Notes: generated by a model from the letters alone, not told the origin. 64,000 bases of DNA from Deltaproteobacteria bacterium (GCA_016218815.1 JACRCX010000117.1:35009-99008); one strand, 5' to 3'. Counted from the first letter of the stretch, positions 10,302-54,972 are shown. Program-made: numbers and translations.

Positions 10302-11714
10302 TCAGCCGCGGATGCGCCAGAGCTTGAGCACGTCGGTGCGGCCGGGGCCGCTCATGTCCTGCATGCCGAAGGTCACGGCGATGTCGTCGCCGGGGCGAAC
10401 CCAGCCCCTGGCGAGCAGCTCGCGTTCCGCCTGCTCCACCACCCCGGAGACGCCCTCCACCCAGTCGGCGTGCAGCGGCAGCACGCCCCAGCGCAGGGCG
10501 AGGCGCCGGAGCACGGCGGGGTGCCGCGAGAACGCGGCGATCCAGGCGCGGGGGCGGCAGGCGCTGACCAGGGCCGGCGAGTGCCCGGTCTCGGAGTAGA
10601 CCGCGAGCGCCTTGAGCCCGAGGTCCTCCGCGGCCGTCACCGCGGCGCGCGCGATGGCGTTGGAGAAGCTGTACTCCTTGAGCCGCAGCGGCCGGGTCGC
10701 GCCCTCGAACAACGCGCTCTTCTCGACCTCCTCGATCACGGTCGCCATCGTGCGCACCGCTTCCAGCGGGTACTTGCCGCTGGCCGTCTCGCCGGAGAGC
10801 ATCACGGCGTCCGTCCCGTCGAGCACCGCGTTGGCCACGTCCGAGACCTCGGCGCGCGTCGGCCGCGGGTTCTGGATCATCGAGTCCAGCATCTGGGTGG
10901 CCACGATCACGGGCAGCCCGCGGGCCGCGGCCATGCGGATCATCCGCTTCTGGATCAGCGGCACCTTCTCCGTGCCGGCCTCCACGCCCAGGTCCCCGCG
11001 GGCGACCATCACGCCGTCGGCCACGTCGAGGATCTCCTCGAGCCGCGCCACCGCGTCGGGCTTCTCGATCTTCGCGATCACCGGGATGTCGCCGGCCAGC
11101 GCCTTCGCCTCCGCGACGTCCTCGGGGCGCTGCACGAACGAGAGGGCGAAGTAGTCGACCCCCAGGCCGCGGGCGAACGCCAGGTCGGCGCGGTCCTTCT
11201 CCGTCAGCGCCGGCGTGGACAGCGGCGTGCCGGGGAGATTGAACCCCTTGTTGTTCTTGAGCGTGCCGCCCACGACGACCTCGCAGCGCACGTCGCTCCC
11301 GACCACCTCCCTGACGACCAGCTCGAGCAGCCCGTCGTCGAGCAGGACGCGGGCCCCGGGCCGCACGTCCCTGGGCAGGTCGGCGTAGGAGGTCGACACC
11401 AAGCCCGCGGTGCCCACGACGCTCCGGGTGGTGAGGGTGAGCGGTGCGCCGGGCACGAGCTCCACGGCGCCGCCCTCCATGGCGCCCACCCGGATCTTCG
11501 GTCCGCAGAGGTCGGCGAGCACGGCCACGTGCTGGCCCGCCGCCTCGGCCTGCGCGCGCACGATGTCGTAGAGCCGGCGGTGGTCCTCGTGCGTCCCGTG
11601 CGAGAAGTTCAACCGCACGACGTCCAGCCCGGCGCGGATCAGCCCGCCGATCATCTCGGGCGTCGAGCTGGCGGGCCCCAACGTGCCCACGATCTTCACC
11701 CTCTGCTGCATCAT
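10302..11714 (-). CDS. pyk: Pyruvate kinase
   Basis: MMQQRVKIVGTLGPASSTPEMIGGLIRAGLDVVRLNFSHG...MVARGDLGVE...ATQMLDSM: the canonical pyruvate kinase barrel and C-terminal domains. ATGATG start at 11714 is preceded by GGAGG. The maximal ORF to 11849 adds 45 Arg-rich residues. Confidence 0.9.
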   Translation of the reverse strand: MMQQRVKIVGTLGPASSTPEMIGGLIRAGLDVVRLNFSHGTHEDHRRLYDIVRAQAEAAGQHVAVLADLCGPKIRVGAMEGGAVELVPGAPLTLTTRSVVGTAGLVSTSYADLPRDVRPGARVLLDDGLLELVVREVVGSDVRCEVVVGGTLKNNKGFNLPGTPLSTPALTEKDRADLAFARGLGVDYFALSFVQRPEDVAEAKALAGDIPVIAKIEKPDAVARLEEILDVADGVMVARGDLGVEAGTEKVPLIQKRMIRMAAARGLPVIVATQMLDSMIQNPRPTRAEVSDVANAVLDGTDAVMLSGETASGKYPLEAVRTMATVIEEVEKSALFEGATRPLRLKEYSFSNAIARAAVTAAEDLGLKALAVYSETGHSPALVSACRPRAWIAAFSRHPAVLRRLALRWGVLPLHADWVEGVSGVVEQAERELLARGWVRPGDDIAVTFGMQDMSGPGRTDVLKLWRIRG

Positions 11715-29774: not shown

Positions 29775-29830
29775 CGCCGCTTCCTCCCTTCGCCGCCGTT
29801 GCACGGCCGGTCGGGATGGTAACGGGGCCC

Positions 29831-29855
29831 GGACCAACAACCAAGAACCAACGAC
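29831..29855 (+). promoter_or_regulatory. Direct-repeat motif GACCAACAAC-N4-AACCAACGACC in the divergent intergenic region between the caspase-like gene and nadA
   Basis: Near-identical to the site at 28060. It is followed by TTCGAC/TTGCAC -35-like hexamers. Confidence 0.45.
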
Positions 29856-29920
29856 CGACAACTTCGTCCCGTTCGACCGGGTCTTGCACCGCCCGACGCT
29901 CATGCCTATCTTCCGCCCCG

Positions 29921-30853
<933 letters not shown>

Positions 30854-30872
30854 GGAACGAGCGGTCAAGTGG

Positions 30873-30945
30873 TCGGAACCGAACCGCGCCCTTCAGGGCG
30901 CGGCTGAGTCGGTCGGGCCAGCCGCGGGCTGAAGCCCGCGGTTCT
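30873..30945 (+). repeat. REP/MITE-like double-hairpin intergenic element, copy 1 (between nadA and larE)
   Basis: GGAACCGAACCGCGCCCTTCAGGGCGCGGCTG-N12-GCCGCGGGCTGAAGCCCGCGGTTC, with two GC-rich hairpins (CGCGCCCT/AGGGCGCG and CCGCGGGC/GCCCGCGG). It shares 60+ identical nt with the copies at 41514 and 47281. Confidence 0.8.
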
Positions 30946-31032
30946 GGTACGGCAGCCCGGCAAACTGGCGGGTCGTCGACGACGAAACCAGGGGCACCGG
31001 AAGGGCCGACCGCCGAGTCGAAGTACGCCCGC

Positions 31033-31851
31033 GTGCTCGAGGCGCTGCGCGAGCTGCCCGGAGCCGTCGTCGCCTTCTCCGGCGGCGTCGACAGCTCGCT
31101 CCTGCTCCGCGCCGCCAAGGACGCGCTCGGCGAGAAGGTCCTCGCCGTCACCGCTCGCTCCCCGACCTACACCGCCTCCGAGGAGGAGTGCGCGCGCGAG
31201 GTCGCCCGGCTGCTCGGTGCCGCCCACCGCGTGGTCGAGACCGACGAGCTGGATGATCCCGAGTTCCGGAAGAACCCGCCGACCCGGTGCTTCGCGTGCA
31301 AGCGCGAGCTGTTCGCCAAGCTCCGCGCGCTCGCGGTCGCCCAGGGCGGCTGGGAAGTGCTCGAAGGCGCCAACGCCGACGACCGGCGCGACTACCGCCC
31401 CGGCCGGCGCGCGGCGCACGAAGCCCGCGTCCCGAGCCCGCTGGCCGCCGCCGGGCTCACGAAGGCCGAGATCCGCGAGCTGGCCCGCGCCCGCGGCCTG
31501 CCGAACTGGGACGCGCCCTCGCAAGCCTGTCTCGCCTCGCGCCTGCCCTACGGCGTCGAGATCACCGTCGAGCGCCTGGAGCGGATAGGCAAGGCGGAGG
31601 CGGCGCTGCGGGCGCTCGGCTTCGCCGTCGTCCGCGTCCGCGACCACGGCGAGGTCGCGCGGCTCGAGGTCGGGGTGGATGACCTGGCACGGTTGTTCGA
31701 CCCGGCCCTGAGGGATTCCGCCGTGCGCGCGGTGAAGGAAGCCGGCTTCGTCTACGTCGCGCTGGATCTCGAGGGCTACCGCACCGGCGCGATGAACGAG
31801 GTGCTGGCGGGGAAGATGAAACCACCGATGGACACCGATGGACACCGATAG
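31033..31851 (+). CDS. larE: ATP-dependent sacrificial sulfur transferase LarE (PP-loop ATP pyrophosphatase)
   Basis: PP-loop AFSGGVDSS and the conserved Cys context PTRCFACK. GTG start at 31033 lies downstream of the REP-like element that occupies 30873..30945. The maximal ORF from 30718 would run through the repeat and overlap nadA. Confidence 0.75.
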   Translation: MLEALRELPGAVVAFSGGVDSSLLLRAAKDALGEKVLAVTARSPTYTASEEECAREVARLLGAAHRVVETDELDDPEFRKNPPTRCFACKRELFAKLRALAVAQGGWEVLEGANADDRRDYRPGRRAAHEARVPSPLAAAGLTKAEIRELARARGLPNWDAPSQACLASRLPYGVEITVERLERIGKAEAALRALGFAVVRVRDHGEVARLEVGVDDLARLFDPALRDSAVRAVKEAGFVYVALDLEGYRTGAMNEVLAGKMKPPMDTDGHR

Positions 31852-32851
31852 GAGAGAAAACGGGAGGGGGACCGCGGGGCGCCGATTCCCATCCGGGATC
31901 TCGCGGCGCGAGGCGCTGGAGCTGCTGCGGGTCGAGGGGCCCGAGTTGTACGACCTGCTGGCGCGGGCGGGGAGGGTGAGGCACGAGCGGCGGGGGGATG
32001 AGGTCGCCCTGTGCTCGATCGTCAACGCGCGCAGCGGCCACTGCGGGGAGGATTGCGCGTTCTGCGCGCAGTCGTCGCGGGCGAAGGCCGCCATCGAGAC
32101 GTATCCGTTGCTCGGCGTCGAGCGGATGGTCGGCGCGGCACGCGACGCGGCGGCGAACGGCGCCGCCTGCTTCAGCATCGTGACCTCGGGCCGGGCGCTG
32201 GGGAAGAGGGACCTGGGCGCCGTCGCGAAGGCGCTCTCGAGGATCGGGCGCGAGCTGCCGGTCCGGCCGTCCGCGTCGCTCGGGTTGCTGGACGCGGGCG
32301 CGATCGAGCGGCTGCGGGACGCCGGTCTCCGGCGGTTGCACCACAACCTGGAGACGGCGGAGAGCTTCTTCCCGTCGATCTGCACGACGCGCCGGTGGTC
32401 GGACTCGATCGAAGCGATTCGTCGGGCCAAGGCCGCGGGGCTGGAGACGTGCTGCGGAGGGATCTTCGGCATGGGCGAGACGCCGGCGCAGCGGGTCGAG
32501 CTGCTGGCCGCGCTTCGCGAGGTCGACCCGGACTCGGTGCCGCTCAACTTCCTCAACCCGATCCCCGGCACGAGACTCGGACGTCTTGCCCCGATGCCGG
32601 CACTCGACGCGCTCAAGGTCGTCGCCGTCGCGCGCCTCATGATGCCGGCGAAGGAAATCCGGGTGTGCGGCGGGCGCGAGCGCGTGCTGGGCGATCTGCA
32701 GTCGTGGATCTTTCTCGCCGGCGCCGACGGGATGATGGTCGGCGGCTACCTGACGACGCTCGGACGGCCGGTCGAAGCCGATCTCCGCATGATCGCCGAC
32801 CTCGGCCTGCGCGTCGCGACTCCGCCCCGCGACGGTGCTCGAGACAGGTAG
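31838..32851 (+). CDS. bioB: Biotin synthase (radical SAM)
   Basis: CGEDCAFCAQSS (CxxxCxxC radical-SAM cluster) and ETCCGGIFGMGET (auxiliary cluster region). The start overlaps the larE end by 14 bp, within a 10-bp tandem duplication atggacaccg x2. Confidence 0.8.
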   Translation: MDTDRRENGRGTAGRRFPSGISRREALELLRVEGPELYDLLARAGRVRHERRGDEVALCSIVNARSGHCGEDCAFCAQSSRAKAAIETYPLLGVERMVGAARDAAANGAACFSIVTSGRALGKRDLGAVAKALSRIGRELPVRPSASLGLLDAGAIERLRDAGLRRLHHNLETAESFFPSICTTRRWSDSIEAIRRAKAAGLETCCGGIFGMGETPAQRVELLAALREVDPDSVPLNFLNPIPGTRLGRLAPMPALDALKVVAVARLMMPAKEIRVCGGRERVLGDLQSWIFLAGADGMMVGGYLTTLGRPVEADLRMIADLGLRVATPPRDGARDR

Positions 32852-34748: not shown

Positions 34749-37148
34749 ATGACGAAGATGTGCGTGCGAATCGGGTCGCTCCTTGGCCTGTTCCTCGCGG
34801 CACTGTCCTGCGCCAGCGGCGGCTCCGGCACGCCCGATTACGGCTTCGAATCGGCCGACGGCGACGACGGCGGCGGAGGAACGGATGCCGACGAGGGCGA
34901 CGGCGGGGACGCCGACGAGGACGCCGGCGAAGGCGGCGACGCGGATGCGGACGACGACGCCGGCGCGGATGCCGACGGCGACGCGGACGCCGACGGCGGC
35001 GAGCCGTGCACGTCGGCGACGGAGTGCGACGACGGGATCGACTGCACGCTCGACACCTGCGACGACCTCGCGCACCTCTGCGTCCACACCACCGACGACC
35101 TGGGATGCGACGACGGCAACCCGTGCACCACGGGAGAGTATTGCGATCCGGCGAGCGGGTGCGCGGCGGGCGAGCCGATCGACTGCGGCGACGGCATCGA
35201 CTGCACGCGGGACGAGTGCCAGCCGCTGACCGGCGAGTGCGTGAACACGCCGGCCCACGACCGGTGCACGCCGCCTGAGATGTGCCGCCCGGAAGACGGA
35301 GGCTGCGCCGTGCCGCCGCCGTGCGAGTCGACCTCCGATTGCGACGACGGCAACCCGTGCAACGGTGCCGAGCTCTGTGACCCCGAATTCGGGTGTCAGG
35401 CGGGCACGCCCGTGGATTGCGACGACGGTGTGCATTGCACGGCCGATCTCTGCAGTCCTTTGACGTCCGAGTGCACCCATGAGCCCGAGGACTGGCGCTG
35501 CGAGGACGGCAATGCGTGCAACGGGCACGAGGCATGCGATGCGGCTACCGGCTGCTCATCGGGCACTCCGGTCAACTGCTCCGACGGCATTCCGTGCACG
35601 GAGGATTCCTGCGCCATCGCGACGGGCGCCTGCTCGCACGTTGCCAACGATTCTCGCTGCGACGACAGCGCGTTCTGCAACGGATTCGAGCGCTGCGATT
35701 CGGCCCTGGGCTGCACCGGCGGGGCGGTGCCCGCGTGCTCCGACGGCATCGCTTGCACGGTGGACGCGTGCGACGCCGGGACGGACGCGTGCACACACAG
35801 CCCGAACAACGCGTTGTGCGGGGACGGCCTGTTCTGCAACGGCTCCGAGATCTGCTCGGGCGGCGTCGGCTGCGGCCCGGGCACGCCGCCCGTCTGTGCG
35901 GACGCCCTGGCGTGCACCACCGACCGCTGCGATCCCGCTGCCGCGGGCGGCGCGGGCGCGTGCGTCGGCGACTCGCCCGACCGCGACGGCGACACCTACG
36001 GCGATGCCGCGTGTACCGGCACCGACTGCAACGACGGGTCGGCCGGCATCCACCCCGGGGCGACCGAGTCGTGCAACGGCATCGACGACGACTGCGACGG
36101 CACCACCGACGAGACCTTCACCTGCCCGGCCGGCTCCACGCGGAGCTGCTCGCTCGGAAGCTGCACCGGCTCGCAGACCTGCAGCTCGGGCTGCACCTGG
36201 GGAAGCTGCGTCGTCTCGGGCGCCGAGATCTGCAACGGGCTCGACGACAATTGCAACGGAGCCTCGGACGAGGGCTTCACCTGCCGGCTTGGCGCCGTCC
36301 AGGCCTGTAGCGTCGGCTCGTGTCCCGGCTTCCAGACCTGCGCGGCGGGCTGCACGTGGGGCTCGTGCACGGCGTCGGCGAGCGAGGTGTGCAACGGCGT
36401 CGACGACGATTGCGACGGCATGACCGACGAGGGCTTCGGCTGCGTCCTGGGACGGACCCAGTCCTGCACGGTCGGCTCGTGCGGCGGCTCGCAGACCTGC
36501 CAGGCGGGCTGCTTCTGGGGTTCCTGCACCGTCGGAACGCCCGAGTCGTGCAACGGCGTCGACGACAACTGCAACGGGGCGACCGACGAGACCTTCACCT
36601 GCCGACTCGGGAGCACGGTCGGGTGCACGAACACGTGCGGCGTCGGCGGGTCGCAAACCTGCACCGGGCCGTCGTGCTCCTGGGGCTCCTGCTGCTCCGC
36701 GTCGGAAGTGTGCGGCAACTCGTGCGACGACAACTGCAGCGGCGGCATCGACGAGGGATGCTGCGTCGGCGGAACGGCGAACTTCACCTTCCCCAACAGT
36801 TCGGATTCGGTGTACATGCCCGACTACCCCTGGATGTGGCGAAACGGGGATTACTTCCAGGGGACGCGCGTGACTTCCGTGCCATGTGCCACGTCCATCA
36901 CGCTCACTCTTTATGCATATAGCAACAGTCTCGCTTGCGACATGCTCAGCGGGAGGTTCCTCCTCAACGGCACCCCGATCGGTACCTTCGACCTGACGCC
37001 GGGGTACGGGGGGATTTCCGGCACGCTGTCCTTCGCGCCCATCTACGGTCCGACCTACACCCTACGCATGGAGGTGACCCGGACCGTTGCGACGGGGTGT
37101 GGCTCGGTCTGGTGGGAGGAGAACTACTCGCCCTGGACGATCCACTGA
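34749..37148 (+). CDS. Large cysteine-rich secreted lipoprotein (Myxococcus-type CxDGxxC repeats + CNGxDDDCDG putative metal-binding motifs + unique C-terminal domain)
   Basis: Lipobox MTKMCVRIGSLLGLFLAALSCASGG and an acidic Asp/Gly/Ala linker. Then about 12 CxxDxDC(T/N)xDxC modules, followed by 5 modules of CNGxDD(D/N)C(D/N)GxxDE...SC..GSC.G.Q.C...C.WG.C. The C-terminal approximately 130 aa are non-repetitive. Confidence 0.75.
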   Translation: MTKMCVRIGSLLGLFLAALSCASGGSGTPDYGFESADGDDGGGGTDADEGDGGDADEDAGEGGDADADDDAGADADGDADADGGEPCTSATECDDGIDCTLDTCDDLAHLCVHTTDDLGCDDGNPCTTGEYCDPASGCAAGEPIDCGDGIDCTRDECQPLTGECVNTPAHDRCTPPEMCRPEDGGCAVPPPCESTSDCDDGNPCNGAELCDPEFGCQAGTPVDCDDGVHCTADLCSPLTSECTHEPEDWRCEDGNACNGHEACDAATGCSSGTPVNCSDGIPCTEDSCAIATGACSHVANDSRCDDSAFCNGFERCDSALGCTGGAVPACSDGIACTVDACDAGTDACTHSPNNALCGDGLFCNGSEICSGGVGCGPGTPPVCADALACTTDRCDPAAAGGAGACVGDSPDRDGDTYGDAACTGTDCNDGSAGIHPGATESCNGIDDDCDGTTDETFTCPAGSTRSCSLGSCTGSQTCSSGCTWGSCVVSGAEICNGLDDNCNGASDEGFTCRLGAVQACSVGSCPGFQTCAAGCTWGSCTASASEVCNGVDDDCDGMTDEGFGCVLGRTQSCTVGSCGGSQTCQAGCFWGSCTVGTPESCNGVDDNCNGATDETFTCRLGSTVGCTNTCGVGGSQTCTGPSCSWGSCCSASEVCGNSCDDNCSGGIDEGCCVGGTANFTFPNSSDSVYMPDYPWMWRNGDYFQGTRVTSVPCATSITLTLYAYSNSLACDMLSGRFLLNGTPIGTFDLTPGYGGISGTLSFAPIYGPTYTLRMEVTRTVATGCGSVWWEENYSPWTIH

Positions 37149-37185
37149 GCCCGGTCGCACCCCCCCGCTCGCCCTGCCCCCCCGC

Positions 37186-37214
37186 CTTGACCGTTCGAAT
37201 CGCGTGGCCTACCC
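37186..37214 (+). promoter_or_regulatory. Sigma70-like promoter, duplicated copy (-35 TTGACC, 17-bp spacer, -10 TACCCT)
   Basis: TTGACC at 37186-37191 and TACCCT at 37209-37214. The flanking block GTGGCCTACCCTGAAC is identical to the one at 34691. Confidence 0.5.
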
Positions 37215-37254
37215 TGAACCTCGCGCTCGCGGAGAACGCAGGGAGGTCGCGAAC

Positions 37255-39888
37255 ATGGCAAAGGCGCACCGAAGCTTCGGTCTGCTCGTCGCCGTCCTCT
37301 GGTCCCTGGGCGGGTGCGCCACGGGCAGCTCCGGCATGCCCGATTACGGCTCCGAATCGACCCACGGCGACGACGGCGGCGGAGGAACCGACGCCGACGA
37401 GGGCGGCGCCGAGGACGCCGGCGAGGACGCCGGCGAGGTCGACGACGAGGGCGACTCGGCCGCCGACGCCGAGGCGGACGGCGACACGCCGTGTACGACG
37501 GCCGTCGAGTGCGACGACGGGATCGACTGCACCTTCGACTCCTGCGACAACCTGCGTCACGTCTGCGTCCACACCCCCGAGGACGCCGCCTGCGACGACG
37601 GCAGCCCGTGCACCACGGGCGAGCACTGCGACCCCGCCCTCGGCTGCGACCCCGGCACGACCATCGATTGCGGGGACGGCATCGCCTGCACCCGCGACGA
37701 GTGCCTGTCGCTGACCGGCGAGTGCACCAGCACGCCCGACGACACGCTGTGCGCGGCGACCGAGCGCTGCCGCCCTGCCCTCGGCGGCTGTGTCGTGCCC
37801 CCGCCCTGCGGCTCCGACGCGGAGTGCGACGACGGCAACCGCTGCAACGGCGTCGAGACCTGCGGCGGCGACCTCGGCTGCGAGGACGGGACGCCCGTCG
37901 ATTGCCGCGACGCCGTCGACTGCACCGACGACGTTTGCGAGCCCGCGAGCGGCGCCTGTTCCCACCCGCCCGACGACGCGCGGTGCGACGACGGCAACGC
38001 GTGCAACGGCGCCGAGACCTGCGATGCCGTCGCCGGCTGCCGCTCCGGCACGCCCCTCGACTGCTCCGACGGCGTGGACTGCACCGAGGACTCCTGCAGC
38101 GCCCTGACCGGTGCCTGCTCGCACGCCGCCAACGACTCCCGCTGCGACGACCGGGTCTACTGCAACGGCCCCGAGCGCTGCGACCCGGTCTCCGGCTGTT
38201 CCGGCGGCACGGCACCCTCGTGCAGCGACGGCATCGCCTGCACCTCGGACTCCTGCGACGGCACGACCGACAGTTGCACGCACACGCCGAACAACGCGCT
38301 CTGCTCGGACGGCCGCTTCTGCAACGGCGTCGAGCTCTGCTCCGGCGGCGTCGGCTGCGGCCCCGGCACTCCCGCGGTCTGCTCGGACGGCCTGGCGTGC
38401 ACCACCGATCGTTGCGATCCCGCGGCGGCCGGCGGCGCCGGCGCCTGCGTCGGCGAATCGCCCGACCGCGACGGCGATACCTACGGCGACGCCGCCTGCA
38501 CCGGCACCGACTGCAACGACGGGGCGGCCGGCGTCCACCCCGGCGCCGCCGAGCTGTGCAATGGCGGGGACGACGATTGCGACGGTGCGACCGACGAGGG
38601 CTACGTGTGTCCGGCCGGCACCTCGCGGAGCTGCACGGTGGGCGGCTGCACCGGCTCGCAGGCGTGCAGCGCGAGCTGCACGTGGGGAAGCTGCGTCGTG
38701 TCGGGCACCGAGGTGTGCAACGGCCTGGACGACGACTGCGACGGGCTCTCCGACGAGGTCTTCGCCTGCCGCTTCGGCGCCGTCCAGGCGTGCAGCGTCG
38801 GGTCGTGCCCGGGCACGCAGAGCTGCGTCGCCGGCTGCACCTGGGGCGCTTGCACCGCCTCCGCCTCCGAGGCGTGCAACGGGCTGGACGACAACTGCAA
38901 CGGCGTCACGGACGAGGGCTACTCCTGCATCATGGGCCGGGCGCAGTCCTGCACGATCGGGGCCTGCTCCGGGAGCCAGACGTGCCAGCCGGGCTGCTAC
39001 TGGGGCGCCTGCACCGCCGGCTCGCCGGAGTCGTGCAACGGCCTGGACGACGACTGCAACGGGGCGACCGACGAGATCTTCCCCTGCCGCCTGGGCACCA
39101 CGATCGGCTGCACCAACGCCTGCGGCGTCGCCGGCTCGCAGTCCTGTGCCTCGCCCTCGTGCACCTGGGGCTCCTGCTGCGCGGCTGCCGAGGTCTGCGG
39201 CAACGGGTGCGACGACAACTGCGCCGGCGGGGTCGATGAGGGATGCGTGTCCCGGCGCATCCTCTTTCTGCTCGATCTCTGCCCTGGCTCCTCCGGATAC
39301 GGGATCGACCACGTCACCCCGGCGCTGACCAACCTCGGGTACTACGGGTCCACCACGTTCGTGTACAACGACGCGTCGTTGTCCGCGCAGCTCTCCTCCG
39401 GCACCTGGGACCTGGTCATCGTCGACGAGTACTACTACGACCTCACTCCGACGACGATGGACCAACTCAACGCCCACGTCCTGGCCGGGCGCGCCCTCAT
39501 CTTCTCGTACTGGGACCTGTTCCTCTACTCGGGCCACGCCCTCCTATCGACCGCGGGCGTCGCCCTCTCGCTCTCCTACTCCTCCCCGCCGCCGATCTAC
39601 CGCTGGATCACCTCGCCCCTGTTCACGACCCCCAACGCCGTTCCGGACATCTCCGGCTACACCGACACCTGCAACACCGACGGCCAGTACCTGATCGTCA
39701 GCTCGGCGACCGCCCACGCCGGCTACGCGCCCTTCCCGTTCCCCAGCCAGGCGGCGCTCACGGTCAATTCCAGCTCCCGCATGATCCTCAACGGCTTCAT
39801 GCCGCAGATCGTGAGCCAGAACGCCGACGGCGACGGCAAGCCGGACATGGTCGAGCTGTACGAGAACGAGATCGACTTCCTGCTGTAG
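37255..39888 (+). CDS. Large cysteine-rich secreted lipoprotein, tandem paralog of 34749..37148 with a different C-terminal domain
   Basis: GGGAGG RBS and ATG 37255. Lipobox MAKAHRSFGLLVAVLWSLGGCATG. Same module order as the upstream gene; many modules are near-identical in sequence. The C-terminal about 230 aa (ILFLLDLCPGSSGYGIDHV...) are unrelated to the upstream paralog's tail. Confidence 0.75.
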   Translation: MAKAHRSFGLLVAVLWSLGGCATGSSGMPDYGSESTHGDDGGGGTDADEGGAEDAGEDAGEVDDEGDSAADAEADGDTPCTTAVECDDGIDCTFDSCDNLRHVCVHTPEDAACDDGSPCTTGEHCDPALGCDPGTTIDCGDGIACTRDECLSLTGECTSTPDDTLCAATERCRPALGGCVVPPPCGSDAECDDGNRCNGVETCGGDLGCEDGTPVDCRDAVDCTDDVCEPASGACSHPPDDARCDDGNACNGAETCDAVAGCRSGTPLDCSDGVDCTEDSCSALTGACSHAANDSRCDDRVYCNGPERCDPVSGCSGGTAPSCSDGIACTSDSCDGTTDSCTHTPNNALCSDGRFCNGVELCSGGVGCGPGTPAVCSDGLACTTDRCDPAAAGGAGACVGESPDRDGDTYGDAACTGTDCNDGAAGVHPGAAELCNGGDDDCDGATDEGYVCPAGTSRSCTVGGCTGSQACSASCTWGSCVVSGTEVCNGLDDDCDGLSDEVFACRFGAVQACSVGSCPGTQSCVAGCTWGACTASASEACNGLDDNCNGVTDEGYSCIMGRAQSCTIGACSGSQTCQPGCYWGACTAGSPESCNGLDDDCNGATDEIFPCRLGTTIGCTNACGVAGSQSCASPSCTWGSCCAAAEVCGNGCDDNCAGGVDEGCVSRRILFLLDLCPGSSGYGIDHVTPALTNLGYYGSTTFVYNDASLSAQLSSGTWDLVIVDEYYYDLTPTTMDQLNAHVLAGRALIFSYWDLFLYSGHALLSTAGVALSLSYSSPPPIYRWITSPLFTTPNAVPDISGYTDTCNTDGQYLIVSSATAHAGYAPFPFPSQAALTVNSSSRMILNGFMPQIVSQNADGDGKPDMVELYENEIDFLL

Positions 39889-39893
39889 GTCGA

Positions 39894-41510
39894 TCAGGTT
39901 CCCATCACGAACTCCAGGTACGCCTCCACCGACAGCTCCTCGCCCGTCGCCTCGCGCACCCGCACCGTCCACTCCCGCGTCTCGCCGTCCGACCACAGCG
40001 CCTCGCGCAGGAACGCGCCGACGGCCGGGTCGTCCAGCCACCCCTCGCCGAATCGCTCCCGGACCGCGCGCAGGACCTGCGCCGCGATCAGATCCGCCAG
40101 CACGTAGTTCTGCATGTAGCACGGGTACGCCGCGAGAAATGCGGTCGCCGCCCACGTCGCCGGCGCGTCCAACGGGAGCGCAAGACCCAGATACCGTTCC
40201 GCGACCTCGTGCTCGACGGCGTCGACGTCGGTCCCCTCCTCGTACAGCGCCCGCTCCAACGCCACGTCGGCCAGGCGCGAACGCACCGAAACCAGCGAGC
40301 GGGCGCGCCACAGCGCCAGGAAGCGCTCGATCTCCTCCGTCGACAGGTCGGTCCGCCGCTCGAGGAACGCGCGGTCGCCGACGAGCAGCCCGAGCAGCTC
40401 GGCCATCCCCTCCGCGTACGCCGGCACGCTCGCGCCGGCCAGCCATTCGTAGCCCTTCAGGATTGGCGAGGCGACGGTCGTCGAGACGCCCTGGAGCGCG
40501 TGGCCCGTCTCGTGGAACAGGGTCCCCCACACGCGCCAGCCGGGCAGGGGGTTGATCATCATGCGCACGTCGTCGGGGATCGAGACGGCCAGAGTCTGGC
40601 CGCCATAGCCGAAATCACCCTCCCGGCGGCGGATGGGCAGCGCCTCCAGCTCGACGCCGATCCCCCGCAGCGTCTCCGACAGCGCCGGCAGCGCCTGCTC
40701 CTTCGGCCAACGCTCGTCCGGGATCGTGCCGAGCTTCTCGATCAGCCACGGCACGTCCCAGGGGGCGAGCGTCGCGGCGGGGTCGCCGCCCGCCTCGCGC
40801 CCGCGCCGCAGCACCTCCGCCCACGCCTCCGCCGTCCGCTCGTCCAGCTCGCGCAGCAGCGGATCGAGCAGCTCCGGCGGCAGCCCCTCGGCCCCCAGCA
40901 TCGCGTCGGCGTAGGTGCCGGCCCCCCCCAGCCCGGCCGCGGCTTCCTTCCGCAGCGAGACCAGCCGCAGCGTGTCCTCCAGAACCTCGCCGTGCAGGTC
41001 GCCGCGAAGCTCCACGACGAGCCGCCGCTCGGCCGGGTCGTCCGAGCGCGACAAACGCGAGAGGTCGGAGCGCGACCAGGTCCGGTCGCCCCGCACGAAC
41101 GCGTGCTCGTTGACCCGGCGCTCCAGGTCGGTGCGCAGCCGGACGGCCTCCGGGTCCGCGTCGAGCCGCCAGGCGCCCTCGCAGCGACGCCAGACCTCGG
41201 CCCGCCGGGCGATGATCGGATCGCCGCCGGACCCGCGGCAGGCGTCGAGCACCGGGCGCGCCCGGTCGAAGAGGCGGCCGAACTCGGCGCGCACCGCCGC
41301 CGGATCCTCGGCCGTCTCGCCTTCTTCCTCCCCGACGTACGACAGCCAGGTCGCGGCGCCCAGTCGCCGCGCGAGCGCTTCGTAGTCGGCTTCGAGCGCG
41401 TCGAGTGCGCCGCACGAGTCGTTCACGGCCGGAACTCCTTCCGCGGGGCGCGTCCCTTCCGGACCGCCGCAGGCGACGAGCAGCAGAAGACAGGAACCAC
41501 CGATGGACAC
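39894..41510 (-). CDS. Zinc metallopeptidase lipoprotein, M3/M2-like (HETGH motif)
   Basis: GTG at 41510 gives MSIGGSCLLLLVACGG (lipobox). The HExxH site is LFHETGHALQG, with a downstream EGMAELLG region. The maximal ORF to 42956 is antisense of the M20 gene. Confidence 0.65.
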   Translation of the reverse strand: MSIGGSCLLLLVACGGPEGTRPAEGVPAVNDSCGALDALEADYEALARRLGAATWLSYVGEEEGETAEDPAAVRAEFGRLFDRARPVLDACRGSGGDPIIARRAEVWRRCEGAWRLDADPEAVRLRTDLERRVNEHAFVRGDRTWSRSDLSRLSRSDDPAERRLVVELRGDLHGEVLEDTLRLVSLRKEAAAGLGGAGTYADAMLGAEGLPPELLDPLLRELDERTAEAWAEVLRRGREAGGDPAATLAPWDVPWLIEKLGTIPDERWPKEQALPALSETLRGIGVELEALPIRRREGDFGYGGQTLAVSIPDDVRMMINPLPGWRVWGTLFHETGHALQGVSTTVASPILKGYEWLAGASVPAYAEGMAELLGLLVGDRAFLERRTDLSTEEIERFLALWRARSLVSVRSRLADVALERALYEEGTDVDAVEHEVAERYLGLALPLDAPATWAATAFLAAYPCYMQNYVLADLIAAQVLRAVRERFGEGWLDDPAVGAFLREALWSDGETREWTVRVREATGEELSVEAYLEFVMGT

Positions 41511-41513
41511 GGT

Positions 41514-41586
41514 GCGGAACCGAACCGCGCCCTTCAGGGCGCGGCTGTGTCGGGACAAGCCGCGGGCTGAAGCCCGCGGTTCGGTT
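41514..41586 (+). repeat. REP/MITE-like double-hairpin element, copy 2 (between the M20 peptidase stop and the M3-like peptidase start)
   Basis: Same consensus as copy 1. The outer arms GGAACCGAACCGCG...CGCGGTTCGGTTGC form terminal inverted repeats. Confidence 0.8.
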
Positions 41587-41611: not shown

Positions 41612-42850
41612 CTACACCTGGAGCATGACGTGGGTCATGACCTTGGCGTCGCCCAGGATGTTGGAGAGGATGACGTACTCGTTCGGCCCGTGCATCGTCT
41701 CGTCCATGCGGGCCCAGACGGCGGCCGGGGCGCCGCCGCGGCGGAGGTGGGCCGCGACCGTGCCGCCGCCGATGCCCATCGGCTTCGCGGCCACGCCGTA
41801 CACCTTCTGCACCGCCTTGATCAGCGAGGTGACGACGGGGGCGTCGACGGGGGTCGGCGGGGCGGCGTTGTCGCGCTGCACGATGTCGACCGTCGTCTTC
41901 GTGCCCATCTTGCGGTCGGTCTGGCCGCAGATCGTCTTGACGCGCCGGAGCACCTTCGTGATGTCGTACTCGGGCAGCACGCGGCAGTCGACGTAGAACA
42001 CGTCCTCTCCCGGGATCGTGTTCACGTTGGGCACGTTCGCCTCGTGCTTCGTCGGCTCGAAGGTGGAGATCGGCGGGTCGAACACCTCGTTGCGCGCCCC
42101 GAACTTCTTGTACAGCGAGCCCAGCTTGACGATCGTGTGCGCCGCGGCCACGTGCGCGTTGATCCCCTTCTCCGGGGTCGAGCCGTGGCACTGCTTGCCC
42201 TGCGTCGTGATCTTCAGCCAGATGATCCCCTTCTCCGCTACCTCGACCATCGATCCGTCCGGCAGCCCGCCGTCCGGAACGATGACGATGTCCTCGGCGC
42301 GGAACATCCCCTTGTTCTTCTTGAGCAGGTACTGGATGCCGAACTCGCTCCCCGTCTCCTCGTCCGCGACGAACAGCAGGGCGACGTCGAACGCCGGGAC
42401 CGTCTTCGTCTCCAGAAGCGCCTTGGCCGCCAGAAGCGAGGCCACGATGCCCTGCTGGTTGTCCTCCACGCCGCGCCCGTAGACCTTGTCGCCGTCCACC
42501 CGCGCCTCGAACGGCGGAGAGTCCCACTTCTTGAGATCGCCCTCCGGGACGATGTCCAGGTGGCTCATGATCCACACCGTGCGGTCGTGTGACGCCCCGG
42601 GGATCCGCGCGATGAGGTTCGGCCGCACGCCGCCGTCCGCCTCCGCGTCCGGCGCGTCGATCCGCTCGAGCTGCGTGATGCCGAGCCCGCGCAGGACCTC
42701 CTCCACCGCGAGACACCGGGCCAGCTCGCCCTTGCCCCCGCTCTTCGGGCAGACCGCCGGGATCGCCGTCAGCTTCTTCTCCAGCGCGATCGCCTCGTCC
42801 CGGTACCCGTCGATCTTCGCCGCCACGGTCTCGAATGCGGTTCCGTTCAT
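41612..42850 (-). CDS. M20 family metallopeptidase (ArgE/DapE/acetylornithine deacetylase-like)
   Basis: ATG at 42850 with GGAGGAGGAA RBS. MSHLDIVPEGD (metal-binding His/Asp), VADEETGSEFG (the catalytic Glu-Glu/Asp pair context) and GGGTVAAHLR are present. 412 aa. Confidence 0.8.
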   Translation of the reverse strand: MNGTAFETVAAKIDGYRDEAIALEKKLTAIPAVCPKSGGKGELARCLAVEEVLRGLGITQLERIDAPDAEADGGVRPNLIARIPGASHDRTVWIMSHLDIVPEGDLKKWDSPPFEARVDGDKVYGRGVEDNQQGIVASLLAAKALLETKTVPAFDVALLFVADEETGSEFGIQYLLKKNKGMFRAEDIVIVPDGGLPDGSMVEVAEKGIIWLKITTQGKQCHGSTPEKGINAHVAAAHTIVKLGSLYKKFGARNEVFDPPISTFEPTKHEANVPNVNTIPGEDVFYVDCRVLPEYDITKVLRRVKTICGQTDRKMGTKTTVDIVQRDNAAPPTPVDAPVVTSLIKAVQKVYGVAAKPMGIGGGTVAAHLRRGGAPAAVWARMDETMHGPNEYVILSNILGDAKVMTHVMLQV

Positions 42851-42982
42851 TTCCTCCTCCTTCCTCGCTCCTCGAGCGCGACTTTCCAGCCGGCGGGCGC
42901 GACGATAGCGCCGGGGTGGGACCGGCGGCAACCCCCTTCCGTTCCTGTTGATCCACGGATCGCCGCCGCGTAGGCTCGGGGC

Positions 42983-43606
42983 ATGTTCCACGTCGTCGAG
43001 CATCCCCTGGTGCAGCACAAGCTCGGCATCCTGCGGGCCGCGGATACGAGCACCGCGAAGTTCCGCGAGGTGACGCGCGAGATCACCAACCTCCTCAGCT
43101 ACGAGGCGACCAAGGACCTGGACACGGAAGAGGCGACGGTCCAGGGCTGGGCCGGCCCGGTCCGCGTCCGCCAGATCGTGGGCAAGAAGGTCGCCGTCGT
43201 CCCGATCCTGCGTGCCGGCATCGGCATGCTCCAGGGCGTCCTGGACCTCATCCCCGCCGCCCGCGTCAATGTCGTCGGCCTCTACCGCAACGAGGAAACC
43301 CTGGAGCCCGTGCAGTACTACAAGAAGTTCAACGTCGACATCGCCGAGCGGCTGGCGATCGTCCTGGACCCGATGCTCGCCACGGGTCACTCGTTCGCCG
43401 CCACGGTCGACATGCTCCGCGCCGCGGGGTGCGCGACCATCCGCGGGCTCTGCCTGGTCGGCGCGCCGGAAGGCATCGGGCTCCTGGAGCGCACGCACCC
43501 CGAGGTCGAGATCTTCGCGGCGTCGCGCGACGAGCGGCTGAACGACCGCGGGTACATCCTCCCGGGGCTCGGCGACGCCGGCGACCGGCTGTTCGGCACG
43601 AAGTGA
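42983..43606 (+). CDS. upp: Uracil phosphoribosyltransferase
   Basis: [18 protein letters not shown]...PILRAGIGM...[11 protein letters not shown]...[17 protein letters not shown]: the textbook Upp. Confidence 0.9.
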
Positions 43607-44238: not shown

Positions 44239-44242
44239 TCCG

Positions 44243-44352
44243 GCCGACCGCTCGCCCGCTCGCCCGCTCGCCTCCCCCCGGCCGCTCGACCGCTCGCCTC
44301 CCCCCCCGGCCGCTCGGCCGCTCGCCTCCCCCCGGCCGCTCGCTTCCTCGCT
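44243..44352. repeat. Intergenic minisatellite, about 29-bp unit x3.5 (GGCCGCTCGRCCGCTCGCCTCCCCCC)
   Basis: Direct tandem repeats are visible between the acyltransferase stop (44238) and the Cys-rich lipoprotein stop (44351). Confidence 0.75.
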
Positions 44353-47185
44353 AGCGCGTGGAGCGCGAGGTCGTGTCGCTGATCACGGTGTTGAGCGGGG
44401 TGACCGAGCAGGTGTCGGGGCCGCTCCAGTAGACGTCGACGACGCGCCACATGTCGCGCGCGCCTCCGCCGCCGTTGGCGCAGACGGTGCGGGTGTAGGT
44501 CCCGACCGGCGTGTAGCTGATGTCGCCGCAGTAGATGCGCACCGTGGCCGTGCGACAGCCGTCCGAACGGTAGTGGTGGACGCCGACCCGGTAGGTGTTG
44601 CCGACGACCGGCGAATCGATGTTGATGTTCTCCGGCCCGTCCCCGGGGATGTCGTCGTAGTCCAGCCGTGGGTCGTCGAGCGTGCCGCCGCCGTCCCAGG
44701 ACGGCCGGGTGTTGGCGTAGTAGCAGTCGTACGGCGAGTTGAACCACGCGGGCGAGCTGGGGTGCAGCAGGTGCAAGTCGACGTCGCCCGGGATGTCCCA
44801 GACCAGCTCGACCCGCAGCCCTAGACCCGTGACGTGCACCTCCACCGTGCAGCTCGCCGTCCGCCCGCCGCTGTCGGTCACCGTGTAGCGCAGCATGTAC
44901 ACGCCGGCGATGTCGGCGCGGAAGGTCGTGGAGGCGCAGATCGTGCAGCCGAAGCTGTAGATCATGCCGGCGGGGCCGGACGTGACCTCCCAGCGGCGGG
45001 AGACGATGTCGCCGTCGGGGTCGCCGTCCGAGGCGGTCAGCGTGACCGTCGCGCGGGCGACCATCGTGACCGGGGACGCCGGACAGGTCGTCCACGGCGG
45101 CCCGAAACAGCCCTCGTCGACCGAGCCGTCGCAGTCCTCGTCGCGCCCCGTGCTGCAGGCCTCGGTGCCGGGCAGCCGCTCGCCCGAACACGCGCCCCAG
45201 GTGGAGCCGGAGCCGGGGATTTCCACGCAGACCTGGCTGCCGTCGCGGCACTCGCCGACCAGGCGCGTGGCCGGCGGGCCGGTGTAGCACGAGCGCGTCG
45301 CGCCGGGCGTGCAGGTGCATCCTTCGTCGGTGCCGTAGTCGCAGTCGTTGTCCAGCCCGTCCGCGCAGACCTCGATCCCGGGGAGCACCTCGCCGCCGCA
45401 GGCCGTCCAGGTGCTGCCGCCGCCCGGGATCGTCACGCAGCTCTGCGAGCCCTGCCGGCAGACGCCGACGCCGGCCGTGCCGGCCGGCCCGGAGTAGCAG
45501 TTGCGGGTGGTGCCCGGCGTGCAGACGCACAGCTCATCGCGCGTGCCGTCGCAGTCGTTGTCGACGGAGTCGCCGCAGACCTCCGTCGCCGGAACGACCT
45601 CGCCCACGCACGCGCCCCAGGACGCCGTCCCGCCGCTGCCGCTCACGCAGGTCTGGGTCCCGTTGCGGCAGGGACCGACGCCCGCGGTGCCGGCCGGTCC
45701 GGAGTAGCACGAGCGCGTCGCGCCGGGCGTGCACGTGCACCCCTCGTCGATGGCGTGGTCGCAGTCGTTGTCGATCGCGTCGCAGATCTCCGTGTCGGGT
45801 CCGTGCCAGCCCGCGCAGGCGGTCCACGTGGAGCTGGTCGAGCCGCTGTCCCACAGGCACTCGCGGCGCCCGTCGACGCAGACGCCGACCCCTCGCGTGC
45901 CGGCCGGCCCCGGGTAGCAGGCTTCCTCCGCCAGCGGCGGACATTCGCAGCCCGCGTCGGGCTCGCCGTCGCAGTCGTTGTCCAGACCGTCGCACACGTC
46001 GGGCGCGGGAAGGACGCTGCCGGTGCAGGGGCCCCATTCCGTGCCGCCGCCCGAGGTCGCGACGCAGGTCTGACCTCCCGCCAGACACGTGCCCTCGCCC
46101 TCGGTCCCCGCCGGGCCCGTGTAGCAGCTCCGGACGTCCCCCAGCACGCAGCCGCAGCCCTCGTCCGTCAACGCGTCGCAGTCGTCGTCGATGCCGTTGT
46201 CGCACAGCTCGAATCCCGGACCGGTCCAGCCCAGGCACAGGCCCCAGGAAGAGAGCGCGCCGCCGGGATCGACCACGCAGCTCTGGTCGCCGTCGGAACA
46301 GAGGCCCCGGCCGCGCGTGTCCGCAGGGCCCTCGTAGCAGACCCGCGTCGTACCGGGCGGGCAGACGCAACCCGCATCGACGGCGCCGTCACAGTCGTTG
46401 TCGACCCCGTCGCACAGGTCGATGCCCGGCAACGTCTGCCCGCGGCACTCGCCCCATTCCGTGCCGCCATCGGCCGTCTCCTGGCAGTACTGGTTGCCCC
46501 CCGTGCAGGTGCCGACGCCGTCGGTGCCGGCCGGACCCGTGTAGCACGGACGCCGGTCGCCGGTGTCGCAGACGCATCCTTCGTCCGCCGAGCCGTCGCA
46601 GTCGTTGTCGGTCCCGTCCCCGCAGGCCTCGCTGCCGGGCAGCACCGAGCCGGTGCAGTCGCCCCACGAGCCGAACTCGCCCACGGCGATGCAGGTCTGC
46701 GAGCCCATGTCGCAGATGCCGACTCCCGCCGCCGGCTCCGGCCCGACGTAGCACGGCTGCACCTCGCCGATCGCGCACGCGCAGCCCTCGTCGGCCGTCG
46801 TGTCCCCGTCGTTGTCGATGCCGTCGCCGCAGCGCTCCTCGCCCGGCGTCCACTCCGCCGGCGCATCGTCCGCGTCCGCGCCGGTGTCCGCGTCGCCGTC
46901 GCCCCCCTCGGGGTCCGCGTCGGCGTCGCCGTCCGCCGCGGCGTCCGGATCCCCATCGATCGTGCCGTCGGGAATCGGGGCGTCGGCGTCGCCGCCCGGG
47001 ACGTCCCATCCATCGCCCATCCCGTCGAAGAACCGGCACGTGCCGTCGACGCAGATGCCGCCGGGGCAGTCCGCGTTGCCCGAGCAGCGGGTGTCGTCGC
47101 CGCCCGAGGAGTCCGCCCCGGAGCCGCAGCCGGCCAGGGCCAGCGCGATACCCGCGAGCACGATACAAAACACCCTTTGCCGCAT
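44351..47185 (-). CDS. Large cysteine-rich lipoprotein with about 10 CxDGxDNDCDG putative metal-binding repeats and a C-terminal PKD/Ig-like region
   Basis: ATG 47185 with lipobox MRQRVFCIVLAGIALALAGCGSG. The repeats have the form CDxxDNDCDGxxDEGCxCxPGxTRxCYxGPAGTxGVGxCxxGxQxC. The C-terminal approximately 250 aa are beta-rich and non-repetitive. Confidence 0.75.
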   Translation of the reverse strand: MRQRVFCIVLAGIALALAGCGSGADSSGGDDTRCSGNADCPGGICVDGTCRFFDGMGDGWDVPGGDADAPIPDGTIDGDPDAAADGDADADPEGGDGDADTGADADDAPAEWTPGEERCGDGIDNDGDTTADEGCACAIGEVQPCYVGPEPAAGVGICDMGSQTCIAVGEFGSWGDCTGSVLPGSEACGDGTDNDCDGSADEGCVCDTGDRRPCYTGPAGTDGVGTCTGGNQYCQETADGGTEWGECRGQTLPGIDLCDGVDNDCDGAVDAGCVCPPGTTRVCYEGPADTRGRGLCSDGDQSCVVDPGGALSSWGLCLGWTGPGFELCDNGIDDDCDALTDEGCGCVLGDVRSCYTGPAGTEGEGTCLAGGQTCVATSGGGTEWGPCTGSVLPAPDVCDGLDNDCDGEPDAGCECPPLAEEACYPGPAGTRGVGVCVDGRRECLWDSGSTSSTWTACAGWHGPDTEICDAIDNDCDHAIDEGCTCTPGATRSCYSGPAGTAGVGPCRNGTQTCVSGSGGTASWGACVGEVVPATEVCGDSVDNDCDGTRDELCVCTPGTTRNCYSGPAGTAGVGVCRQGSQSCVTIPGGGSTWTACGGEVLPGIEVCADGLDNDCDYGTDEGCTCTPGATRSCYTGPPATRLVGECRDGSQVCVEIPGSGSTWGACSGERLPGTEACSTGRDEDCDGSVDEGCFGPPWTTCPASPVTMVARATVTLTASDGDPDGDIVSRRWEVTSGPAGMIYSFGCTICASTTFRADIAGVYMLRYTVTDSGGRTASCTVEVHVTGLGLRVELVWDIPGDVDLHLLHPSSPAWFNSPYDCYYANTRPSWDGGGTLDDPRLDYDDIPGDGPENINIDSPVVGNTYRVGVHHYRSDGCRTATVRIYCGDISYTPVGTYTRTVCANGGGGARDMWRVVDVYWSGPDTCSVTPLNTVISDTTSRSTR

Positions 47186-47280: not shown

Positions 47281-47350
47281 TCCGAACCGCGGGCTTCAGC
47301 CCGCGGCTGAATCGCGTCGCAGCCGCGCCCTGAAGGGCGCGGTTCCGTTG
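47281..47350 (-). repeat. REP/MITE-like double-hairpin element, copy 3 (inverted orientation; divergent intergenic region between the Cys-rich lipoprotein and the STPK)
   Basis: The reverse complement matches GGAACCGCGCCCTTCAGGGCGCGGCTG...GCCGCGGGCTGAAGCCCGCGGTTCGG. Confidence 0.8.
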
Positions 47351-47491
47351 CCGGCTTCCGCATGGGACATCGATTCGAATACCCTGTCCGTAAGAATGCG
47401 GCCCGTGTGCGGTTCGTCAGTAGCCCGCCATGATCCGTTTGACCGGGCGTTGGCGATGGGTCATGATGCCGGGCGAGCGGGAGGCGATAGC

Positions 47492-49645
<2,154 letters not shown>

Positions 49646-54801: not shown

Positions 54802-54869
54802 CGCACCTCCCCGCCGCCCGCCCCCGGCCGCGGCGGACCGTTCGTAGGGCGGGTGCTGTGGCATGTCAA

Positions 54870-54972
54870 GGAGTGGGTCGATCGGAGGAGTGGGTCGATC
54901 GGAGGAGTGCGTTGATCGGAGAAGTTGGTCGATCGGAGGAGTTGGTCGTTTGGAGGAGTTATTGGTGGCCAT
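54870..54972. repeat. Intergenic tandem repeat, about 17-bp unit x6 (GGAGGAGTKGGTCGATC) upstream of thyX
   Basis: ggagtgggtcgatc ggaggagtgggtcgatc ggaggagtgcgttgatc ggagaagttggtcgatc ggaggagttggtcgttt ggaggagttattggtgg. Confidence 0.75.

Follow-up and report, generated by a model that had tools for sequence, protein, structure and literature searches.

The three twin-hairpin sequences in the 64,000-nucleotide stretch of DNA considered here (the window), taken from a deltaproteobacterium, are probably bare REP doublets, similar to REPINs or BIMEs, that belong to a lineage-specific family and are mobilised in trans by a RAYT-like Y1 enzyme. The hosts of the family are uncultured, Myxococcota-like deltaproteobacteria of groundwater and sediment, and the element is of a known kind in a new lineage. 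The first-pass annotation of the window had already proposed a REP-like miniature mobile element. The proposal is borne out by a family that extends over multiple genomes, by spacers that vary and flanks that are unrelated, by stems in which changes are compensated, by the absence of the element from relatives, and by its linkage to a Y1 gene.

Exactly three doublets, each of about 75 bp, lie in the window. They had been placed at 30873, 41514, and 47281 (the last inverted), and their number and orientation stand, with spans refined as follows (bit scores are from the covariance model described below):

30875-30945, plus strand: REP doublet copy 1, with hairpin 1 at 30884-30903, spacer at 30904-30921, and hairpin 2 at 30922-30941; left arm GGAACCGAA, right arm degenerate, TTCTG; 84 bits
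41516-41588, plus strand: REP doublet copy 2, the most complete, with hairpin 1 at 41525-41544, spacer at 41545-41559, and hairpin 2 at 41560-41579; left arm GGAACCGAA, right arm TTCGGTTGC; 87 bits
47280-47351, minus strand: REP doublet copy 3, inverted, with hairpin 2 at 47287-47306, a spacer, and hairpin 1 at 47323-47342; arms, read on the plus strand, ATCCGAA and TTCCGTTGC; 78 bits

Exact 24-25-mers taken from each half are found three times, against none expected from 100 shuffles of the window. A covariance model made from 23 members of the family and run with its filters off returned these three sites only, at 78-87 bits, the next-best match in the window scoring 16 bits. A degenerate search for the hairpin found the six hairpins of the doublets and one chance match with 3 mismatches. 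By the covariance model, then, the density of copies is 3 in 64 kb, within DNA whose GC content is 69-73%.

All three copies share the same layout: an arm (GG)AACCGAA, hairpin 1 (CCGCGCCC-TTCA-GGGCGCGG), a spacer of about 14-17 nt whose sequence differs in each copy, hairpin 2 (CCGCGGGC-TGAA-GCCCGCGG), and an arm TTCGG(T/A)T. REPs and BIMEs are dispersed, extragenic sequences of 20-40 nt, typically present in more than 100 copies per genome. The window hairpins, with stems of 8 bp and loops of 4 nt, are likewise short, GC-rich, imperfect palindromes, and in all three copies they form an inverted pair with a short spacer. The two hairpins of a doublet had been described as near mirror images; they are reverse complements except at two stem positions, and the differences are compensated inside each hairpin (CCC/GGG versus GGC/GCC at the top of the stem). 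The description of the element as ending in inverted arms holds in part. Full arms (GGAACCGAACC and GGTTCGGTTgC) are found in copy 2 only, while the right arm of copy 1 is GGTTCTGG and the arms of copy 3 are GCAACGGAACC and GGTTCGGATGG.

It had been foreseen that the reading would fail if these three copies were the only ones in existence. They are not: members of the family turned up in two MAGs and in 32 stretches of metagenomic DNA. The MAGs came from a scan of one genome per species with a degenerate 20-mer, a pattern that proved too loose, as, of the 107 stretches listed, about 100 were unrelated hairpins or coding matches from other phyla. True copies with AACCGAA flanks, again among the matches listed, were seen in two related MAGs: JACRCZ01 ("Deltaproteobacteria bacterium", from groundwater), with at least five sites (L014, L081, L089 twice, and L098), and JAFGHH01, with at least one (L039). 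Their similarity to the window is confined to about 75 nt. Synteny between the window and REP-bearing loci was considered for L014 and discarded, tblastn with the window neighbours having found none. The 32 metagenomic stretches, 14 of them from a single metagenome, were found with a pattern consisting of hairpin 2 followed by TTC.

Of 43 sites with hairpin 2, 23-25 are doublets, in which the spacer measures 5-30 nt and the flanks are unrelated; among the remainder, some are decayed and some are single hairpins. The sequence of the hairpin is strongly conserved between genomes, and every copy keeps the flank (A/T)(A/T)CCGAA. The tetranucleotides GTAG and CGTC, which define the catalogued REP superfamilies (PMC3733652), are absent.

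Which structure is conserved was judged from covariation. The energies of the RNA folds range from -44 to -48 kcal/mol (z from -3.8 to -5.3), and folding, one of the checks proposed at the outset, leaves two forms energetically possible: two local hairpins, or a single long hairpin interrupted by two 2x2 internal loops. The minimum-energy structures include both. Copy 1 folds in the first way and copy 2 in the second (z = -6.7). Across 23 doublets, hairpin 1 is paired at 99.5%, with three stem pairs changed on both sides and none changed on one side only. The variants are CCGCACCC/GGGTGCGG, CCGCACGC/GCGTGCGG, and CCGCAGCC/GGCTGCGG, and hairpin 1 lay outside the search pattern; the invariance of hairpin 2 is an effect of ascertainment. 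In the same 23-sequence alignment, the long hairpin is paired at 79.8% and has no covarying pairs, and it was rejected as the conserved structure in favor of the two local hairpins. The pairing and covariation of hairpin 1 thus point to the local REP hairpin as the conserved unit.

A search for a cognate RAYT gene had also been proposed. The window has no Y1 gene, but one was found flanked by REPs in metagenome contigs. Two metagenome loci (L130 and L139), retrieved by means of the hairpin alone, carry next to the hairpin a gene for a protein of 170-200 amino acids. The protein used as query scores 21.8 bits on Pfam PF01797 (Y1_Tnp), just below the cut-off of 23, and it scores weakly on the NCBIfam models for IS200 and REP_Tyr_transpos. 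Many of its 940 homologues match PF01797, and many bear the COG-level label "REP element-mobilizing transposase RayT" assigned by JGI. An HxH motif and a C-terminal tyrosine (H125, H127, and Y185) are invariant in 36 sequences. An AlphaFold (AF2) model of the protein has a pLDDT of 89, and the 30 best matches to it in the PDB are all IS200/IS605 TnpA proteins together with the E. coli RAYT-REP complex 4ER8 (rank 9, at 10% sequence identity), so that the search by fold does not discriminate between RAYT and IS200/IS605 TnpA. Searches of the PDB by sequence only were weak (best E 0.02). The candidate transposase has, in sum, the HUH motif, the catalytic tyrosine, and the fold of a Y1 enzyme.

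The hairpin and the gene keep close company. In all eight contigs examined that carry the closest homologues, a hairpin lies within about 100 nt of the start of the gene, and a REP stands upstream of the Y1 gene in L130, L139, and L140-L143. In two contigs (L144 and L145), the Y1 gene sits between perfect inverted copies of a 28-nt sequence comprising hairpin 2 and its flank (TCCGAACCGCGGGCTTCAGCCCGCGGGG ... CCCCGCGGGCTGAAGCCCGCGGTTCGGA); the gene starts about 11 nt past the 5' hairpin, and its stop codon, TGA, falls inside the loop of the 3' hairpin. Neither unit has a DDE gene, and that of L145 is bounded in addition by 16-nt inverted repeats, CCTGGGATTCGGAGTA. The arrangement matches the REP-RAYT-REP order described by Nunvar et al. 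(PMC2817692) and by Bertels & Rainey (PMC3337134). A further contig (L146), from an organism of 65% GC, encodes a Y1 homologue that is 52% identical and flanked by a hairpin family of its own, whose flank, ATCCGAGCC, is similar; this cluster of hairpins scores 36.7 bits with the doublet model. That this enzyme is accompanied by its own hairpins suggests that enzyme and hairpins co-vary.

The contigs with the Y1 gene have a GC fraction of 0.70-0.72, the same as that of the window. Searches by tblastn with the Y1 protein gave no match in the 64-kb window or in all the loci fetched from the two related MAGs, and close homologues came from NCBI MAGs in 0 of 7 cases. We infer that a Y1 enzyme of this sort moves the doublets and exists in the source genome. 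One trait expected of a RAYT gene, that of being single-copy, vertically inherited, and non-mobile, does not describe the Y1 gene in the contigs seen: there it lies in units bounded by terminal inverted repeats (TIRs) and set in different flanks, often beside an IS1182 DDE gene.

These units call for a closer look. In L130, L139, and L140-L143, a gene for a DDE transposase of the IS1182 family (338 bits) comes after the Y1 gene, and the pair is enclosed by ends of about 80 nt that finish in 20-nt inverted repeats, CTSAGAGCGTGAGCA.... The REP hairpins lie in these ends, at about 50 nt from the tips, and so are not target duplications. What adjoins the ends differs from contig to contig, over several metagenomes. 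Related loci hold a MITE with ends of the same type. The sites are:

L140, 12-2522: complete composite IS of 2.5 kb, with both hairpins near the left end and a further hairpin 2 near the right
L130, 580-3114, and also L139, L142, and L143: further sites of the composite IS
L115, 925-1094: 170-bp MITE with IS1182-type ends and a central REP doublet, lying between copies of a 17-nt direct repeat, CCTCCGTACGGGCCCGT, whose core is palindromic
L122, 524-689 and 1-115: copy of the MITE interrupting a DDE transposase gene

One might therefore suppose that the doublets are cores or remnants of IS1182-derived MITEs spread by a DDE transposase, with the Y1 gene a mere passenger. The complete IS in L140, having at once TIRs, REP hairpins, and both the Y1 and the DDE genes, is what this supposition leads one to expect, as are the MITE of L115, with the same TIRs around its central doublet and a direct repeat outside them, and the copy that interrupts the DDE gene in L122. 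Moreover, members of the IS1182 family have been reported to interact with stem-loops (PMC5678879). It follows from the MITEs of L115 and L122 that DDE-type MITEs can serve as a further vehicle for doublets. The window copies, however, do not resemble them. A search of the window for IS1182 TIRs gave nothing above chance, the flanks of its three copies and of six other bare doublets are no more similar to the arms of the MITE than are shuffled controls, and no flanking direct repeats were seen at the window copies. From the stop of nadA to the REP of copy 1 there are 22 nt, where an arm of the MITE needs 44. About 20 of the 25 doublets lack TIRs, and the REP-Y1-REP units of L144 and L145 do without a DDE gene. 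A MITE origin of the window copies was rejected on the strength of the TIR search and the alignment of the arms, both at chance level, and as an account of the family as a whole it is unlikely. The label of MITE-like with terminal inverted repeats, given in the first-pass annotation, does not suit the window copies: their outer arms are the flanks of the REPs, and IS1182-type ends are absent.

A different connection between the two kinds of element may be entertained, tentatively and with less than even confidence. TIR-bounded packaging of REP and Y1 has been observed in short metagenome contigs only. Perhaps REP-RAYT in this clade is packaged in TIR-bounded transposons, either a 0.74-kb REP-Y1-REP unit or a 2.5-kb element of the IS1182 family with DDE and Y1 genes and REP hairpins in its ends. 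The doublets would then have two routes, one as MITEs moved by the DDE transposase and one as bare doublets moved by the Y1 enzyme, as well as a vehicle for horizontal transfer.

The surroundings of the three copies bear on whether the host has selected them. The layout of genes, drawn from plots of third-position GC and from Pfam scans, is as follows:

29816-30853, plus strand: nadA (quinolinate synthase; Pfam NadA, 412 bits), whose stop codon TGA at 30851-30853 overlaps the ATG at 30850
30850-31851, plus strand: gene for a larE-like PP-loop ATPase, with a coupled start at ATG 30850 and an alternative start at GTG 31033
39894-41510, minus strand: gene for an HExxH metallopeptidase lipoprotein with weak, sub-threshold similarity to M32/M3 peptidases; likely start GTG 41510
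41612-43498, minus strand: M20/M28 peptidase gene, with 23 nt between its stop and copy 2
44351-47185, minus strand: gene for a MopE/PKD Cys-repeat lipoprotein; likely start ATG 47185 (MRQRVFCIVLAGIALALAGC), about 95 nt from copy 3
47456-49645, plus strand: Ser/Thr protein kinase gene, transcribed divergently from the MopE gene, with copy 3 in the upstream region that they share

This layout, supported by Pfam, agrees with the original placement of copy 1 between nadA and the larE-like gene, both on the plus strand. Copy 2 lies in a minus-strand operon, after the stop (41612) of the gene for the M20 peptidase and before the start of the HExxH peptidase gene; it had been said to lie directly upstream of the start of an M3-like peptidase, and GTG 41510 is indeed 5 nt away, the similarity to M32/M3 being weak. 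Relative to transcription, the orientation of copy 1 differs from that of copy 2. Copy 3 was rightly assigned to a divergent region, a spacer of about 270 nt between the MopE/PKD gene and the kinase gene.

The same junctions can be compared in relatives. The window NadA is 100% identical to a protein from a "Deltaproteobacteria bacterium" MAG and 91% identical to that of JACRCZ01. Three loci were pertinent:

L149 (JACRCZ010000147): syntenic at 84-89% nucleotide identity, with the order nadA-larE-bioB-mnmA-MopE-peptidase-M20; two copies of a different small palindrome at nadA/larE and a C/T-rich simple repeat at peptidase/M20
L151 (JAFGHH01): genes in the same order; an ATGA overlap joins nadA and larE, and the element is absent at peptidase/M20
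L150 (metagenome contig with a NadA of 87% identity): extends over nadA and no further than the start of larE; the two genes overlap as ATGA

The element is absent at both junctions in L149 and L151 and at nadA/larE in L150, and the doublet model found none anywhere in the three loci. Homology between the window and the relatives stops exactly around the element, which implies that doublets were gained or lost within about 10-15% nucleotide divergence. Related genomes are thus polymorphic for insertion of doublets. The sites are not cleanly empty ones, and because other sequence fills the orthologous sites of L149, gain is not separable from loss or replacement.

The sequences found in place of the doublets are of some interest in themselves. 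At nadA/larE, L149 has (10922-11018) two in-frame copies of another palindromic repeat, CCCTGAGCC(T/C)GTCGAAGGG, and small repeats seem to have a hot spot at this junction. C/T-rich simple repeats occur in intergenic spacers, of the CCGCACTCCCCGCTCTT type in L149 (18800-18900) and of the CCGCTCGCCCGCTCGCC type in the window (44240-44351); those of L149 occupy the site equivalent to that of REP copy 2.

The doublets might alternatively be structural modules selected by the host, such as hairpins that stabilise or attenuate mRNA, or BIME-like sites for IHF or gyrase, kept at operon junctions. The positions of the copies, the first two between co-directional genes and the third in a divergent regulatory region, are in keeping with such a role, as are the very stable RNA folds and the strong conservation of the hairpin between genomes, and REPs of E. 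coli are reported to be 3'UTR regulators (10.64898/2026.03.23.713779). A module kept for its function at a junction ought not to be missing from that junction in relatives, at 84-89% identity, nor to be placed in opposite ways relative to transcription in copies 1 and 2, and the neighbouring genes are unrelated to one another. The linkage of the family to transposase genes likewise speaks against selection by the host as the explanation, as do the following results: a reading of the sequence found no run of T after any of the three copies, a scan for terminators and promoters around copy 1 found nothing, with no terminator-like site in 30700-31100, and Rfam has no family that matches at gathering thresholds, offering generic hairpin matches only (15-21 bits, E<1). 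This explanation is accordingly judged quite improbable. The suggestion in the first-pass annotation of a termination module reused at operon junctions is not supported, there being no T-run, no constant orientation, and no element at the same junctions in relatives. Secondary co-option of doublets by the host is possible, and side effects on the genes nearby are likely.

Whether copies 1 and 2 are translated is a separate matter. The frame of larE is open from ATG 30850 through copy 1 into the conserved body of LarE, which has, by that start, 47 extra N-terminal codons compared with L150 and L151. It had been claimed that copy 1 forces larE to start at a downstream GTG. This is possible, GTG 31033 being the first start codon after the element, but the ancestral ATG 30850 survives, and its frame runs on unbroken through the element. 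Similarly, the frame through copy 2 is open up to GTG 41600, but GTG 41510, followed by SIGGSCLLLLVAC and 5 nt from the copy, is a more plausible start for a lipoprotein. Copies 1 and 2 are therefore either translated as N-terminal extensions or displace the starts of genes. The statement that the element is always intergenic holds for copy 3 and is unproven for the other two, which lie at the 5' ends of genes with frames open to upstream start codons. That the repeats are conserved coding sequence, encoding a shared N-terminal peptide motif, is most improbable: copies 1 and 2 do lie in open frames that run on into the genes downstream, but copy 3 is inverted and non-coding, the frames of copies 1 and 2 read opposite strands of the element, the relatives lack the residues encoded by the REP, third-position GC is about 72% in the larE extension against more than 90% in genes, and covariation in the stems preserves pairing rather than codons.

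If the window copies are bare doublets moved by a Y1 enzyme, their behaviour might be pictured on the model of IS608, ISDra2, and the TnpA-REP of E. coli (PMC3479197). A doublet is taken to consist of two inverted units, each made up of AACCGAA, a hairpin with an 8-bp GC stem and a TTCA loop, and a final C, with a short free spacer between them. On single-stranded DNA, for example the template of the lagging strand, each REP would form a separate hairpin. Hairpin and flank would be recognised by a RAYT-like Y1 HUH tyrosine transposase, which would cut and rejoin. Doublets would in this way be excised and copied, and their insertions at new sites would fall mostly at gene boundaries. Insertion could affect neighbouring genes: it could have broken the translational coupling of nadA and larE, added 47 codons to LarE, supplied the 5' region of the peptidase gene, and placed hairpins in mRNA.

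The closest parallel is with the REPINs and RAYTs of Pseudomonas fluorescens SBW25 (Bertels & Rainey 2011, PMC3116915, PMC3337134), which are also inverted pairs of REPs with a short spacer, capable of forming a long hairpin, dispersed at gene boundaries, and accompanied by a Y1 HUH gene flanked by inverted REPs. The differences are that the host here belongs to an uncultured Myxococcota-like lineage, that the flank of the REP is AACCGAA rather than GTAG, and that the two REPs of a doublet are of fixed, distinct types (CCC/GGG and GGC/GCC at the top of the stem). Also, the Y1 gene is found here in TIR-bounded, apparently mobile units, whereas that of SBW25 is single and vertically inherited. 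REPIN-RAYT systems are argued, in two reports (10.1101/2022.05.22.493013, 10.1101/2021.07.10.451892), to be long-lived, vertically inherited intragenomic replicators.

With the REPs and BIMEs of E. coli and their TnpA-REP (4ER8; PMC2817692, PMC3479197) the family shares GC-rich imperfect palindromes in alternating orientation, and the Y1 model matches 4ER8, with the HUH and Tyr motifs in common; the GTAG tetranucleotide of E. coli is absent here. Elements of the IS200/IS605 group (IS608, ISDra2) have the same Y1 HUH fold and use subterminal DNA hairpins as recognition elements. Their left and right ends are distinct, whereas the hairpins that flank the Y1 gene here are perfect inverted copies of one REP, and here the hairpins are also dispersed alone as doublets. 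The IS1182 family, which includes IS1272 with its stem-loop-directed transposition (PMC5678879), is represented in the related loci by the DDE element and the MITE, and the L115 MITE lies in a duplicated palindromic target; the window copies differ in having no IS1182 ends.

REPIN-RAYT systems have been studied mainly in Gammaproteobacteria. The present case offers a well-defined family of REP doublets and a candidate Y1 enzyme in an uncultured Myxococcota-like lineage of 71% GC. Its flank, neither GTAG nor CGTC, broadens the range of where and in what form REP systems exist and gives a hairpin-enzyme pair open to test. The linkage of Y1 with the IS1182 DDE gene suggests that REP-RAYT modules could ride on conventional transposons, which matters only if true. 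In a practical vein, elements at the starts of genes can break ATGA coupling or add in-frame codons, so in annotating gene starts in these MAGs they should be treated as insertions.

Several other repeats were noticed along the way. A second short repeat, GAAACCAC(C/A)GATGGACAC(C/G)GATG(G/A)ACAC(C/A)GATAGG(A/G)G, lies at the larE/bioB junction of the window (31818-31853), and a truncated version (41493-41512) abuts REP copy 2 and overlaps the start codon of the peptidase gene. It is kept at the orthologous sites of L149 (11844 and 18778) and missing in L151, whose larE and bioB overlap. In L014 (3291-3335) it lies 13 nt from a REP doublet, and the 45-nt match between L014 and the window at 31809-31853 proved to be this different short repeat. 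In an unrelated MAG (L079, about 400-430), a CCGCGGGCTTCAGCCCGCGG hairpin has a similar sequence, AACCACAGATTAACACAGATTTACACGGATAA, before it.

DPANN archaea, CPR bacteria, Planctomycetes, and an unclassified MAG (L003, L006, L011, L015, L022, L025, L033, L042, L050, L079, L082, L096, L104, and L106) have the identical 20-nt hairpins CCGCGGGCTTCAGCCCGCGG and CCGCGCCCTTCAGGGCGCGG. There the hairpins have recurring flanks of their own, AAR before and RTAGTTYA, ATGTT, or ATAAGT after, and in these other phyla they may be separate families of repeats or RNAs that use the same stem-loop.

Within the window, most of the long direct and inverted repeats are accounted for by three large paralogous lipoprotein genes (34800-39900 and 44351-47185) with Cys-rich repeats of the MopE type (C-x-DDDCDG) and PKD repeats. 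At 54852-54959, a 17-nt unit, AGGAGTGGGTCGATCGG, is repeated in tandem about six times.
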